Shown piece by piece: positions 2,915 to 18,819 of a stretch of DNA of 24,139 nt (position 1 is the first letter of the stretch; every line of letters begins with the position of its first letter). Position numbers and translations under genes: made by a program. The stretch is taken from the IMG/VR virus record IMGVR_UViG_3300005265_000764, one strand, 5' to 3'. Under the pieces are notes generated by a model, which ran no database searches, was not told the DNA's origin, and saw only the letters and a list, made by a program, of their open reading frames with translations. This DNA is from a virus.

Positions 2915-3712
2915 ATGTTTGAAGTAATGAAACCAAAAAAGATAGATAGTATTCCTGTGAATAATGAGAGTGAAAAGTATATCTATGAGATTAAATATGA
3001 TGGGGGGAGTGGTATACTTGTTAAACAGGGTGAACATGTAGATGTTTTTCATAACGGGAATAATACTCCTGTAACATATCGTTATCCTGAACTTTTACCA
3101 GAGTTACATAACCTTAAAGATGGAGTGTATATTGCAGAGTTAATAGTGTCTACTAATGACATGGTTGGGGGGGATTTTGATTTATTCCAGAAAAGACAGG
3201 TTGAAAATCGTTTTAAAATAGAAAGACGTAAACAAATGTATCCTATTACAGCGATAGTTTATGATATTGTTAAAAACGATGGTGAAGATATACGGGATTT
3301 AACTCTTTTTGAACGTAAAGAAATACTACATAAAAACGTATGCGATGGTGAACATATACGGGTTATTGAAAGTTTTTCTAATCCTGATAAGATACTTGAA
3401 AAACAGGATATATATGAAGGCATTGTTATCAAGGATATTAATAGTGTTTACAGGAATAGTAAACGTGATGGTTGGTTTAAATATCGTTTTAACAAGGAAG
3501 AGGTTGTCAGATTTGTAGATTTTGAGGATACTGAAACAGGTATTGTTTTACTTACAGAAGAGGGTAAACGTGTTAATCTCGCAGGTAAACGTAGTGAGAT
3601 AGCAAAGGAGAAGATAAAAAATAATGGTTTTGTGGATTGCGAGATTTCTTGGAATAAAAAAACCGATAAAGGTTTTAGGTTTTGTGTAGTAAAAAGAATA
3701 TTGGGGGATTAA
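2915..3712 (+). CDS. lig: minimal ATP-dependent DNA ligase (adenylation domain plus short OB-like C-terminus)
   Basis: Motif I EIKYDG, motif IIIa IVYDIV, motif IV EGIVIK, motif V WFKYR; 265 aa. Confidence 0.9.
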   Translation: MFEVMKPKKIDSIPVNNESEKYIYEIKYDGGSGILVKQGEHVDVFHNGNNTPVTYRYPELLPELHNLKDGVYIAELIVSTNDMVGGDFDLFQKRQVENRFKIERRKQMYPITAIVYDIVKNDGEDIRDLTLFERKEILHKNVCDGEHIRVIESFSNPDKILEKQDIYEGIVIKDINSVYRNSKRDGWFKYRFNKEEVVRFVDFEDTETGIVLLTEEGKRVNLAGKRSEIAKEKIKNNGFVDCEISWNKKTDKGFRFCVVKRILGD

Positions 3713-4145: not shown

Positions 4146-4256
4146 ATGCTGACTAAAGAACAACTTGAAGCAATTGAACAGTTTGAAGCCGAGTTAGAAG
4201 TTAAAGAAAAAGAGAAAAAAGAGATTAACCATCCCTATGGAGATGATTTAATATGA
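4146..4256 (+). CDS. 36-aa acidic microprotein
   Basis: MLTKEQLEAIEQFEAELEVKEKEKKEINHPYGDDLI*; GGGTGAG SD; stop overlaps the PCNA ATG (ATGA). Confidence 0.55.
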   Translation: MLTKEQLEAIEQFEAELEVKEKEKKEINHPYGDDLI

Positions 4257-4948
4257 ATAAAGATTTTAAAGTTAATATTGATAAAAAAGCACTTCTAAAT
4301 GTGTTAAGACGTGTAAAGCCACTTATTCCTGAAATACGTATCTGTTTTAATGCAGAGGGTATACATGTTAGAGAAGTAGATTATGGTCATGTTTGCATGT
4401 ATGATGCAACTATATTTAAAAAATTTAATTTAAATAAGGATGTTGTTTTTTGTGTTGATGTAGAAAAATTTGAAACAGTTTTATCTCTTGTTAAAAGTAA
4501 CAATGTAACTCTTGAGTTTGATGGTAAACTTGTTGTTGATAAAAACTATAAAATTGGTTTACTTGAGATGCCTAAAGAGGATAAGTTGAAAATTCCTAAT
4601 ATTAAATTTGATGTAGAAGTTACACTTGATAGTTTACAACGTATTAAGAGAATAATATCTACAAATGTTAATGATTACTTGACTTTACAGGTTGATAAAA
4701 ATAAAACCTGTTGGGTTGATTTTAAAAGTGATGAAATAGAAATACATGAACCACTTGGTAAGGCACGGATGTTATCAAAAGAAGTAAACTATCCTGTTAC
4801 GGCTATGTATAGTATTGATTATTTTAAAAACATTATACATGACCTTGATACTGCTATTCTCAGATTTTCTACTGATGTTCCTATACAGGTTGTTGAAGAA
4901 AAAGATAACGAAAAGCATTTGTTTTTACTTGCACCACGTATTGAGTGA
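4253..4948 (+). CDS. pcn: PCNA-like DNA sliding clamp
   Basis: 231 aa; EGIHVREVDYGHVCM (D..HV.M motif), VTAMYSIDYFKNI (S.YS.DYL pattern), C-terminal FLLAPRIE typical of archaeal PCNA. Confidence 0.9.
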   Translation: MNKDFKVNIDKKALLNVLRRVKPLIPEIRICFNAEGIHVREVDYGHVCMYDATIFKKFNLNKDVVFCVDVEKFETVLSLVKSNNVTLEFDGKLVVDKNYKIGLLEMPKEDKLKIPNIKFDVEVTLDSLQRIKRIISTNVNDYLTLQVDKNKTCWVDFKSDEIEIHEPLGKARMLSKEVNYPVTAMYSIDYFKNIIHDLDTAILRFSTDVPIQVVEEKDNEKHLFLLAPRIE

Positions 4949-4960
4949 GGGGAAAAAGAA

Positions 4961-5614
4961 ATGACTTGGACAGAGAAGTATAGACCAACATGTTTAGATG
5001 AAGTTGTTGGTCAGGAAAAAGTTGTATCTTATTTCAAGAGATGTTTACAAACTGGAGATATAGACCATTGTATTTTTACTGGGAAGAGTGGAACAGGAAA
5101 AACTACAATGGTAAAAGTAATCGCTAATGAATTCGGTAAACAAGTTATAAAGTTTAGCCCTTCTGATATTAATAAACGTGGTAAAGATTTTGTTCACGAT
5201 GATGTTATACCAGCCATGAGGCATTTATCTATTGACGGGGGTTGGAAGTTAATTTTTATAGAAGAATGTGAAACATTATCACGGCAGGCACAGGAAGAAC
5301 TGCGAACTCCTCTTGAGGATTACTCCCATATTGCAAAAGTGATTTTTGCCTGTAATGATGATAGTAACATTATTCCAGCGATAAAAAGTCGTTGTATCCT
5401 GTTTACTTTTTTACCTATTTCTACACCTGATATGAAAAAACGGTTGCAGGTGATAATTGATAATGAAGGTATTGTAATAGATGAAACTGATTTAGATACA
5501 ATCTGTGAAAAAAGTCATGGAGATTTACGTAAAGCAATCAACTTGTTAAAAGCATATCATAACAATGCTCTTGAATTTAAAGATGAATTTAGTAAATTGT
5601 TTATGAGAGGATAA
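4961..5614 (+). CDS. rfcS: RFC small-subunit-like clamp loader AAA+ ATPase, lacking the C-terminal collar domain
   Basis: WTEKYRP (RFC box II), Walker A GKSGTGKT, Walker B variant IFIEECE, IKSRC (SRC motif), HGDLRKAINLL; only 217 aa. Confidence 0.88.
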   Translation: MTWTEKYRPTCLDEVVGQEKVVSYFKRCLQTGDIDHCIFTGKSGTGKTTMVKVIANEFGKQVIKFSPSDINKRGKDFVHDDVIPAMRHLSIDGGWKLIFIEECETLSRQAQEELRTPLEDYSHIAKVIFACNDDSNIIPAIKSRCILFTFLPISTPDMKKRLQVIIDNEGIVIDETDLDTICEKSHGDLRKAINLLKAYHNNALEFKDEFSKLFMRG

Positions 5615-5616
5615 AA

Positions 5617-6111
5617 ATGCCGAGAGTATATTTTGTAAAAAAAGCAAGAAAAGACTACCCAGCATTTGGGATAAAAAAAGGAGATAGTTACTACTGGTGG
5701 AAATTTAGATACGGCGGGATATATAAAAGTAAAACTCGACCTCGACCAAGCCAACTCACGCAATCAGAGTTTTTATCGACAATATATGCTATTATAGAAG
5801 AAATACAGGATGTAACAATTGATGATTTTAACGGTATAGAAGAACTTAAGAGTTTTATTGAAGAAAAAGCAGAAGAAATAAGAATACTTGGTGAAGAACA
5901 GGAAGATAAACTATACAATATGCCTGAAGGATTACAAGACGGTGAAATAGGATGGCTATTACAAGAGAGGGCAGATGCGTGTTATGAGATGGCTGATGAG
6001 TTAGAAAATATTGATACTGAGATAGATGAGGAGTTGTCAGAAGAGGAGAGAGAAGAACGGTTACAAGAAATACTTGATGAAATACAGAATATAGAATATT
6101 GTGGGGAATGA
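5617..6111 (+). CDS. hypothetical virus-type protein with basic/aromatic N-terminus and very acidic helical C-terminus
   Basis: ARKDYP..GIKKGDSYYWWKFRYGG followed by an E/D-rich region; coupled to the RFC stop. Confidence 0.8.
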   Translation: MPRVYFVKKARKDYPAFGIKKGDSYYWWKFRYGGIYKSKTRPRPSQLTQSEFLSTIYAIIEEIQDVTIDDFNGIEELKSFIEEKAEEIRILGEEQEDKLYNMPEGLQDGEIGWLLQERADACYEMADELENIDTEIDEELSEEEREERLQEILDEIQNIEYCGE

Positions 6112-7100: not shown

Positions 7101-8024
7101 ATGGGTGATGATGAGGAAACACTTGAAGAGTTATTTGAAAAACTGGCACGAGAGAGAGAACCACTTGATTTCCTCTCGCAGTTTATCTGCCCTACGTTAA
7201 TCGGTGACATATGGGAATATATTAGGAAAGCAACTTTACTTCTTCTTGCTACACAAAACGATACAAACACAACAAGGATTAGACTACATACTCTCTTAGT
7301 TGGTTCACCAGGAACGGGTAAAACTGTTTTTTTATCATGGGTACAGGAAAATCTCGGTGGGATTTTAATTAGTTCAGAACATACAAGTAAAACTGGATTA
7401 GTAGGAGATGCTCGTGGTCATCGTATTACTCCTGGTCTCCTCGCTGATTATGATGGTAACATCGTATTACCAGATGAGTTAGACAAGATGAGTGGATTAG
7501 ACCAGAGTGGGCTTTTGCAGGCTATGGAAGAGGGTAAGTACATGATTGTTAAAGGGAAGCAACGTATGGAGTTTGATGCAGAAGTGAGAGTTATCGCTGG
7601 TGCTAATCAACTTGACAAAATTGTTAAACCTCTTCAGGATAGGTTTGATTTTATTTTTAAATTATCTGTTGTTAAACGTGAGAAACGTGCTGAGAATGTT
7701 GATAAACTTATTAAAGCATTTTTTGGAACAAACGAGATGGAAAAAAGTCAGTTGATACTTGAGTATCTACGATGGGTAAAAGACTTTAAACCAGTTATTG
7801 AGGAACAAGATTTTGAAGCTATCTCTGAGATGATGGCTATGTATATTCGTAAGACTTCTACAAAGATTGATAATGTTAGTATTCGTAATCTTGAAATGAG
7901 TATACTGAGGATTGCTTATGCTATGGCTAAACTTGAAAAATCAAATATTAAACCTAAACATGTTAAAAGAGCAATTCTTTTTAAAAATGCTGTTTTGAAA
8001 AAACTCGTTGGAGAACGAGAATAG
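7101..8024 (+). CDS. mcm: MCM-family AAA+ helicase core lacking the N-terminal Zn/OB domain
   Basis: Walker A LLVGSPGTGKT, SKTGLVG, Walker B DELDKM, LLQAMEEG, IAGAN, arginine finger PLQDRFD, sensor-2 SIRNLE; in-frame TAG at 7089 rules out N-terminal extension. Confidence 0.85.
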   Translation: MGDDEETLEELFEKLAREREPLDFLSQFICPTLIGDIWEYIRKATLLLLATQNDTNTTRIRLHTLLVGSPGTGKTVFLSWVQENLGGILISSEHTSKTGLVGDARGHRITPGLLADYDGNIVLPDELDKMSGLDQSGLLQAMEEGKYMIVKGKQRMEFDAEVRVIAGANQLDKIVKPLQDRFDFIFKLSVVKREKRAENVDKLIKAFFGTNEMEKSQLILEYLRWVKDFKPVIEEQDFEAISEMMAMYIRKTSTKIDNVSIRNLEMSILRIAYAMAKLEKSNIKPKHVKRAILFKNAVLKKLVGERE

Positions 8025-17324: not shown

Positions 17325-18284
17325 TTGGAGTTAAAAGAGTTAGTGATATATTTATCAAATGAATGTAATCTTAAATGTAAACACTGTTTCGTTAATCAGA
17401 GAGAAACGCAATCGTTAACATTAGCTGATTTAGAATGGATAAGGGAGACTTTTAAATCTAAAAAAACTATTCTTCTTGGCGGTGAACCTTTACTATATGA
17501 GCATCTTGAAACTGTTTTTAAAATGTTTCCTAATATCCAGATTAGCACGAATGGTTTGTTAATTGATAAGAATCTTAGGCTTTTGAAGAAATATAATGTT
17601 GTTTCTCAACTATCTATAGAAGGGGGTGAGAAAGAAACTGATTCTATACGGGGGTTGGGTGTTTGGGATAAAGTCATGGAGAGTGCTAAGTTGCTTCAAA
17701 AATATAAACTTGAGTTTTATTTCCGTGTAGGGTATCATTTTGGTAATTTGAAAATGCTTGATGAAGTGTTTGATGCTGCTAAAAAGTTTAAAGCGAGAGT
17801 TGTTTTGTTTCCACGGATTGATTTACCACCGTTGTCTACTAAGCTTCAGGAGGAATTATTTGAGTATGCTTTAAACATGAATAGTGTTGTTGCTCAGCCT
17901 CATTTTTTTAGATACTGTGGTAAAGAAGGGCGTTGTGGTGCTGGTAGTGAACGGCTTAACATATTTTATGATAAACGTATTACTCCTTGTAACCTTGACC
18001 TTGATTATACCATTGGTAGAATCGGGGATGATGAGGAAAGTATAAAGCGAAATATCAAGATTTATTTGGAAGAGTATAAAGTTCCACCTGTTGAATGCAC
18101 TGGGTGTAAATATAGTGGTAGTTGCAGAGGTAGTTGTTACGTTGCCAGGTCATACTTGGGGTGTCCTCTTAGGTTGAATCATAGCCTTGAGGATTATATT
18201 GTTACTAACCGTCTTGATGCTGAAAAAGTGCATAAACAGGTTGATGTTAATACTGATTTCATTAAAAGCGTTATAGTATGCTAA
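17325..18284 (+). CDS. radical SAM protein with C-terminal SPASM domain
   Basis: CNLKCKHC (CxxxCxxC), LLGGEP, STNG, SIEG, then CGAG...ITPC...CTGCKYSGSCRGSC SPASM cysteines; TTG start after GGTGA. Confidence 0.9.
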   Translation: MELKELVIYLSNECNLKCKHCFVNQRETQSLTLADLEWIRETFKSKKTILLGGEPLLYEHLETVFKMFPNIQISTNGLLIDKNLRLLKKYNVVSQLSIEGGEKETDSIRGLGVWDKVMESAKLLQKYKLEFYFRVGYHFGNLKMLDEVFDAAKKFKARVVLFPRIDLPPLSTKLQEELFEYALNMNSVVAQPHFFRYCGKEGRCGAGSERLNIFYDKRITPCNLDLDYTIGRIGDDEESIKRNIKIYLEEYKVPPVECTGCKYSGSCRGSCYVARSYLGCPLRLNHSLEDYIVTNRLDAEKVHKQVDVNTDFIKSVIVC

Positions 18285-18443
18285 AATATTTTACTCCTAA
18301 GACTAATGCACCGAGTAAACTCGTCAACTACCACCGTTTGAAAGGTGGCTTGTCTGGTGACAGGCAACGTAAGAGTTGATTAGGAGGCATAAGAAAATAT
18401 GCAGAAGTTATTAGTAGAGCAACAGAAAGTTTTCTTTTTTCAT
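18271..18443 (-). pseudogene. 25-aa membrane micro-gene interrupted by a 95-bp insert
   Basis: Deleting 18323..18417 yields MKKENFLLLSLLGALVLGVKYFSIL*, with a GGGGTGA SD overlapping the upstream stop; as it stands it reads MKKENFLLLY*. Confidence 0.65.
18323..18417 (+). mobile_element. 5'-end fragment of an IS200/IS605-family IscB element (HEARO/omega-RNA-type), no ORF retained
   Basis: Begins GTCAACTACCACCGTTTGAAAGGTGGCTTG (CCACC/GGTGG hairpin), second hairpin TTGTCTG-GTGA-CAGGCAA, closing GTTGATTAG able to pair with the 5' end, then GAGGCAT...ATGCAGAAGTTA; this is the layout I recognise from HEARO/IscB left ends. Confidence 0.75.
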
Positions 18444-18447
18444 AATT

Positions 18448-18819
18448 TCACCCCATTAATGGTGAAGCAGTTATTATCATCATAAGCCCTGCTCCGAAGA
18501 TGTATCCTTGTGCAGGTCCAAGTGTACGTAATGCTTCCCCTAGTTTACCTGTGGCTTTACTATAGTAACTACCGATGAAACTTAGAGTAACTAAAGATAG
18601 TCCTATTATAATATTTATAGGGTAGGAGAAGATAAAGTTTTTTAGGTCTTCAGCAAATTTTGAGAGTTTTTCATAGAACGAGGCGTTTTGTGGTTGAAAA
18701 GTTGTTTGTTTTATTGTTGTTTCATAACTAGGTGGGCTTAAAAAAGATAAAAATAAAACAAAAAAAAGAATTAGGGATGCCCCTAACAATATTTGTATAG
18801 TTTTATCTAAACGCTGCAA
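18448..18819 (-). CDS. membrane protein (3 TM)
   Basis: TTG start after GGTGAG; three hydrophobic segments. Confidence 0.75.
   Translation of the reverse strand: MQRLDKTIQILLGASLILFFVLFLSFLSPPSYETTIKQTTFQPQNASFYEKLSKFAEDLKNFIFSYPINIIIGLSLVTLSFIGSYYSKATGKLGEALRTLGPAQGYIFGAGLMMIITASPLMG

Follow-up and report, generated by a model that had tools for sequence, protein, structure and literature searches.

A probable one-ended relic of an IscB insertion sequence in a disrupted gene of an archaeal mobile element

Gene content of the locus

The window (the whole stretch of 24,139 nucleotides that was analysed, from an IMG/VR virus record) is GC-poor (~33%) and of the archaeal mobile element type, with genes for Ku, an ATP-dependent ligase, PCNA-like and RFC-like proteins, MCM and an archaeal pilin. 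A preliminary description of this DNA, made from its letters alone, had placed Ku and a ligase on the element, and both genes are present on the + strand, Ku at 1591-2343 and the ATP-dependent DNA ligase at 2915-3712. Together with + strand genes at 4253-6111 and 7101-8024 they make up a replication/repair module (Ku, ligase, PCNA-like, RFC-like AAA+, MCM-type helicase), which points to an archaeal plasmid- or virus-like element that would carry its own end-joining genes.

The feature under study, a short stub of an IscB insertion sequence (18323..18424, + strand), lies downstream of a radical SAM gene of the same orientation (17325..18284, + strand; Pfam Radical_SAM, 2.7e-15), which is a likely source of read-through transcription into the former omega-RNA. 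An identical radical SAM neighbour was found in five public contigs; at the three places shown, 18260-18460 is the same as in the window. The stub allele is carried by the samples ERZ23491060, GCA_008297785.1 and SRR6301444. Searches of viral_contigs seeded with the proteins of the two neighbour genes gave no match, and neither did a blastn search of the region against the phage collection.

The space between the radical SAM gene and a 123-aa gene is filled in the nearer relatives, and the intact allele is carried by the samples ERZ27227317, SRR6478754 and 3300021503. In L005/L006, whose radical SAM neighbour is 96% identical to that of the window, an intact 173-aa minus-strand gene is found there (protein MKKENYLIL...SLLGALVLGVKYFSIL); L265-L267 encode an 89% identical protein at the same position, and L268/L269 carry a 264-aa variant with an extra internal domain. 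Among more distant relatives, the gene is absent in L007 and L009/L010, and L008 has a 75-aa ORF at its site. The slot is thus variable in the element family, being occupied by the 173-aa gene in L005 (5034-5555) and its counterpart in L265 (3001-3522), the 264-aa variant in L268 (2068-2862) and the 75-aa ORF in L008 (1160-1387), and being empty in L007 (1305-1308), where the flanking genes overlap by 4 nt.

The window retains both ends of this gene on the - strand. The 3' remnant (18271..18322) consists of the last 16 codons (SLLGALVLGVKYFSIL) and the stop codon, is identical or near-identical to L005 5034-5085 and to L265/L267, and overlaps the 3' end of the radical SAM gene by 14 nt. The 5' remnant (about 18425..18443) comprises the start codon (18443-18441) and the first 5-6 codons (MKKEN...), aligned with AAGATAGTTTTCTTTTTTCATAATTTC of L005, and is preceded by a ribosome-binding site at about 18448-18454. 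Homology between the window and L005 extends up to 18322 (GAGTAAACTC) and resumes at about 18425-18429 (AGTTTTCTTTTTTCAT); about 455 bp of the L005 gene interior have no counterpart in the window, and ~102 nt of omega-RNA stand there instead. In the uninterrupted alleles, the flank GCACCGAGTAAACTC is followed by ATAATTCC or ATTATTCC, the empty site reading GAGTAAACTC then ATAATTCC in L005 and GAGTAGGCTC then ATTATTCC in L265/L267.

These alleles change the picture of what was interrupted. The preliminary description had seen a 95-bp insert within a 25-aa membrane micro-gene, precise removal of which would restore the frame. The arithmetic was right, as excision of 18323-18417 does leave an open 25-codon minus-strand frame, but no micro-gene is restored thereby, since the intact allele in L005/L006, L265-L267 and L268/L269 encodes 173 aa (or 264 aa). 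By comparison with these relatives, the supposed micro-gene can be recognised as the two ends of a membrane-anchored 173-aa gene whose interior has been lost. As ~102 nt of omega-RNA now replace ~455 bp of the gene, it is a coincidence, of the kind expected one time in three, that 18417 and 18418 join in frame. An annotation trap is corrected here, in which the ends of a normal gene with a lost interior had the appearance of an interrupted micro-gene.

Structure and identity of the stub

On the + strand, the sequence from 18323 onward reads GTCAACTACCACC-GTTTGAAA-GGTGG-CTTGTCTG-GTGA-CAGGCAA-CGTAAGAGTTGATTAGGAGGCAT...ATGCAGAAGTTA. It consists of the GTCAAC transposon terminus and about the first 102 nt of an omega-RNA scaffold, arranged as a TnpA-type subterminal hairpin (CCACC/GGTGG), a second hairpin, a closing helix (GTCAAC/GTTGAT) and then GGAGGCAT..ATGCAGAAGTTA. 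The part from GTCAAC through the two hairpins to GTTGAT (18323-18385) folds more stably on the + strand than shuffled sequences (z -2.8), and the 5' domain of HEARO / IscB omega-RNA (GUCAAC, two hairpins, closing helix) was recovered by the cmscan alignment, the fold and the parent alignment alike. The hairpin structure described earlier from 18323 onward is therefore real.

The Infernal search that the preliminary description had proposed gave a hit below threshold. A permissive Rfam scan of 18150-18600 returned HEARO (RF02033) on the + strand at 18323-18397 with 21.7 bits (E 0.018 in this 451-nt search), far under the gathering score of 83 bits for this family; it was the sole Rfam hint in the region, and its alignment matched roughly model positions 1-62 with 143 positions absent. 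At the gathering score, no Rfam match was found anywhere in the window, nor in 20 related loci, real IscB elements among them. Because complete relatives with iscB fail the gathering score too, the HEARO threshold is too narrow and uninformative for this Thermoplasmatales clade. The cmscan alignment also placed GAGGCATAAGAAAA of the window against the last 14 HEARO positions, as if two separate pieces had been joined; this option was rejected, the parents being contiguous there with the first domain.

The identification is carried instead by DNA homology to complete elements. The parents were reached from the part of the stub beyond the 5' motif, which led to a Thermoplasmatales MAG (L166/L185) and from there to the genomes of that order. 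When window positions 18300-18450 were searched against 118 Thermoplasmatales genomes, the first ~88 nt of an omega-RNA followed by an IscB element in G027 (L257) matched 18323-18410 at 90% identity (E 6.8e-28); further matches were obtained in G001, G041, G102 and G073, and all strong matches begin exactly at 18323 (GTCAAC). From this match, the sub-threshold HEARO hit and the multiple alignment, the stub can be assigned to the omega-RNA-bearing terminus of an IscB (IS200/IS605-type) insertion sequence, as the preliminary description had proposed. The position between 18322 and 18323 is likewise a true transposon junction, because two independent copies in G073 share the GTCAAC start within unrelated flanks. 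The left junction of the stub is clean, and the right one was destroyed by deletion, which bears on any target-site duplication.

The right limit of the stub (~18424) carries an uncertainty of about +/-4 nt. In a multiple alignment with L257, L264, L259 and L260, the window tracks L257 nearly base for base to ATGCAGAAGTTA (about 18410) and past this point resembles L264 (TTATTAGAAGAG...CAACA), homology being kept through CAACA at about 18424; the alignment with the 173-aa gene picks up again at a matching position. Two earlier statements are superseded here. The piece is about 102 nt long and does not end at 18417 as a 95-bp insert, and the proposed continuation ...GTAGAG, with its AG microhomology to the flank, gives way to parent sequence that can be followed as far as CAACA. 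The GGAGG...ATG behind the first domain is conserved among the parent elements and did not arise by accident at the junction, the whole GGAGGCAT...ATGC stretch being contiguous parent sequence. The next conserved omega-RNA block (ACACACC and a hairpin with compensatory changes among the parent elements, after nt ~105) is missing from the stub. Homology thus ends at ~nt 102 of a complete scaffold that would span about 200-300 nt with downstream hairpins (about 270 nt in the parents), and more than half of the scaffold is gone.

No IscB or TnpA ORF was found in the window by tblastn or Pfam, in agreement with the preliminary description; the adjacent downstream same-strand iscB ORF (RRXRR/RuvC and HNH) that is present in L257, L259, L260 and L264 is absent here. 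Exact 21-26-mers of the stub were found neither in viral_contigs nor in genome_contigs, where no immediate parent (an identical omega-RNA with iscB) was recovered. The proposed search for parents and empty sites yielded full-length IscB relatives and empty-site alleles, the latter encoding 173 aa and not 25.

Complete elements and the 5' motif

In L257, the ORF downstream of the omega-RNA is RRXRR-positive (1.2e-57), and in its sister elements L259, L260 and L264 the encoded protein is IscB, 451-462 aa long and with both RRXRR (up to 2.8e-65) and HNH domains. The two G073 copies (L259, L263) have ~1.5 kb in common, from GTCAAC to about 67 nt past the stop codon, with unrelated flanks and no tnpA inside. 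The far end of complete copies repeats the subterminal hairpin of the omega-RNA end; a hairpin repeated at both ends is expected of IS200/IS605-type elements. A far-end tail (TCTyCTTGG..GTGATA) is found in these complete copies (L259/L263) as well as in collapsed mini-elements of ~50 nt (L253, L254, L261), and none is present at the stub.

The bare motif GTCAACTACCACC-N6-10-GGTGGCTTG is very abundant in bacteria and archaea, with more than 240 occurrences in public data (metagenomes and genomes). Among the matches listed, 113 unique loci have at least 1.5 kb downstream; a long same-strand ORF was found at 51 of them, and only 4 of these 51 ORFs are RRXRR-positive in Pfam. The bare motif alone is therefore no proof of an IscB locus, and the identification of the stub rests on the long DNA match instead. 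The other 62 of the 113 (L011-L250, among the matches listed) have no long same-strand ORF nearby, and several multi-copy motif families, deltaproteobacterial MAGs providing one example, have the look of structured elements without genes.

A separate observation concerns the conserved GGAGG-ATG at about nt +82 of the omega-RNA. The frame that starts there runs without a stop, and in phase, across the scaffold as far as the PLMP/RRXRR domain in several IscB/IsrB elements (L257, 1580 onward; L259, 164-1516, - strand; L260, 1527-2912, + strand; L264, 1574-2944, + strand; L036, 1031-2221, + strand; L050, 1734-2924, - strand), giving a ~60-aa N-terminal extension (MQKLE...). The compensatory hairpin changes fall in the same omega-RNA stretch as this frame, and L053 has a stop codon in it; the RNA scaffold may also code, or the frame may be open by chance.

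Relation to known IscB systems

IscB insertion sequences, the subject of Altae-Tran et al. 2021 and Meers et al. 2023, belong to the IS200/IS605 superfamily and carry HEARO/omega-RNA. The stub resembles them in its GTCAAC terminus followed by the first omega-RNA domain, in the outside flank at the guide position and in its co-orientation with the upstream gene, and its parents do so in encoding RRXRR and HNH proteins and, in complete copies, in repeating the subterminal hairpin at the other end. It differs in having no iscB, far end or tnpA and about 102 of about 270 nt of scaffold. Its archaeal (Thermoplasmatales) clade also departs from the Rfam HEARO family, remaining under the gathering score even when complete.

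Meers et al. (bioRxiv 10.1101/2023.03.14.532601) state that IscB takes its guide from the 5'-adjacent flank beyond the element boundary, transcribed from outside the element, which bears out the guide rule that the preliminary description had invoked. The would-be guide flank here is 18303..18322 (+ strand, ...GCACCGAGTAAACTC), adjoining the terminus and present in the empty-site alleles L005, L265 and L267. Genes upstream of iscB were reported to be biased to the same orientation (Meers et al., bioRxiv 10.1101/2023.03.14.532601), and the shared orientation of stub and upstream radical SAM gene fits this bias. The same authors call the omega-RNA-bearing end the transposon right end (bioRxiv 10.1101/2023.03.14.532601), so the earlier name "left end" holds only if the element is drawn in iscB orientation.

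Proposed history and alternatives

The reading that we favour, and regard as highly probable, is that an IscB element inserted into the 173-aa gene and that one subsequent deletion left an inert stub. An element of about 1.5 kb, lacking its own tnpA and made up of an omega-RNA of about 270 nt, a 450-460-aa IscB (RRXRR/RuvC, HNH) and a short far end, would have entered the membrane-anchored gene between GAGTAAACTC and ATAATTCC, antisense to it and co-oriented with the upstream radical SAM gene. A single later deletion of about 1.9 kb would then have begun at about nt 103 of the omega-RNA and taken out the rest of it together with iscB, the far end and, beyond these, ~455 bp of the host gene, and the terminus with its ~102-nt omega-RNA stub would remain between both ends of a dead gene. 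The preliminary description had likewise started the deletion within the omega-RNA, which stands, but had let it stop at the element end, beyond which it in fact ran about 455 bp into the host gene.

The alignments bear directly on what the stub is, where exactly it begins on the left, how relatives keep the gene intact and the 455-bp loss, all of which we consider demonstrated at the sequence level; the two-step order (an insertion followed by one deletion), the pathway of repair and the absence of function are what we infer from them. All five stub-allele contigs (5/5) are identical across the stub, and none of them preserves an earlier stage, for instance this gene with the complete element still in it, that would establish the two-step order.

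One-step capture of filler DNA would start from a break in the 173-aa gene that was resected and end-joined, for example by the element's own Ku and ligase, with a stray IscB fragment of ~100 nt captured in the process. Such a course would account for the net replacement (455 bp out, ~102 nt in) with enzymes encoded in the window. It is nevertheless very unlikely, as the piece begins on its left precisely at the transposon terminus, like all bona fide copies, whereas chance would put the start of a random fragment there only about once in a hundred possible positions; its orientation also matches the known co-orientation with the upstream gene, and the junction is TnpA-typical on the left only.

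A mobile gene-less mini-element of about 95-105 nt (PATE/MITE-like), with the 455-bp loss as a separate event, had been offered earlier as an alternative and appears very improbable. Gene-less minimal IS200/IS605 derivatives, PATEs, are known (Meers et al., bioRxiv 10.1101/2023.03.14.532601, Extended Data Fig. 2e), collapsed two-end units of about 50 nt exist in the same family in G001 and G040 (L253, L254, L261), and the stub is also short and gene-less with a transposon end. However, PATEs retain the two transposon ends and are mobilisable in trans, whereas the stub is one-ended, lacking the far-end hairpin tail, and abuts a deletion in the host gene. Omega-RNA sequence continues without a break through its 3' part, and the motif is present in a single copy in the window rather than in multiple copies with identical boundaries. 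Other short copies end elsewhere: independent stubs in related archaeal genomes are cut at 70 nt (L252) and at about 93 nt (L258), and no copy with the same right boundary was found in the Thermoplasmatales genomes searched. Stubs cut at such differing points indicate haphazard truncation rather than a defined mini-element.

That Ku/ligase end joining followed self-cleavage by IscB, or that the stub with its flank guide was retained as a decoy or antisense RNA, is very doubtful; the right junction can be placed only to within a few bases and no exact parent was found, which limits any attribution to microhomology or to Ku and ligase. Domestication as a small RNA in particular, with the read-through stub acting as a decoy for a host IscB or antisense to the 123-aa gene, is exceedingly improbable. 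Co-orientation with the upstream gene would permit transcription, the retained part still folds, and the stub is identical in contigs from several samples; yet these contigs are identical across the whole aligned 201-bp stretch, and such identity is silent on selection. The conserved hairpin block after nt ~105 is among what the scaffold has lost, and mutations in hairpin 1 and GGAGG show the sister stub L258 to be in visible decay. With more than half of the scaffold gone, binding of the stub to IscB is unlikely, judging from the published architecture, and the decoy idea of the preliminary description finds no support. Most likely, the stub is an inert scar.

Chance resemblance of ordinary intergenic DNA to HEARO, which the low Rfam score and the frequent bare motif with its few RRXRR-positive neighbours might suggest, can be dismissed, as it is refuted by the 90% identity over 88 nt to a real IscB element and as bona fide full-length elements of the clade fall under the gathering score as well.

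The stub is therefore a commonplace relic with one end, left by an insertion sequence of a known kind, and a routine scar in a destroyed gene. It also shows IscB insertion sequences invading, and decaying in, a family of Thermoplasmatales plasmid- or virus-like elements with Ku, ligase, PCNA, RFC-like and MCM genes.

Related relics in Thermoplasmatales genomes

Two Thermoplasmatales MAGs link the element family to this IscB clade: a radical SAM relative shares one contig with an IscB element in G102 (C72) and with the 70-nt stub in G001 (C9). From this co-occurrence, the mobile-element family was apparently invaded repeatedly by this clade. PF14239 was not found in G001, an incomplete MAG, in a search in which the control genomes were silent too.

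The 70-nt stub of G001 is joined to a 96-nt stretch (L252 1560-1655 compared with L254 2334-2429) which matches, at 99% identity, the 3' part of a 315-aa gene lying on a different contig of G001, so that its join would be another deletion or rearrangement junction at an IscB end.

Units of ~50 nt in G001 (L253 on C8, L254 on C3) and G040 (L261 on C20) consist of the omega-RNA-end terminus and hairpin fused to a far-end-like tail (TCTCCTTGGAGTGATATT), each directly preceding an ATG that opens an unrelated ORF. Their make-up suggests collapsed two-end IscB relics, which would now supply a GGAG ribosome-binding site. Both they and the stub are decay products of the same kind of element; the collapsed relics measure about 45-50 nt with both termini around one hairpin, whereas the stub is one-ended with about 100 nt of omega-RNA.

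In G043, at least 7 copies of a related terminus (GTGAACTACCACCGTTTGAAAACGGTGG...) were found on contigs C60, C75, C83 (position 24-54), C44, C25 and C82, most of them within tens of bases of contig ends, which points to a multi-copy element at which the assembly of this Thermoplasmatales MAG is interrupted.
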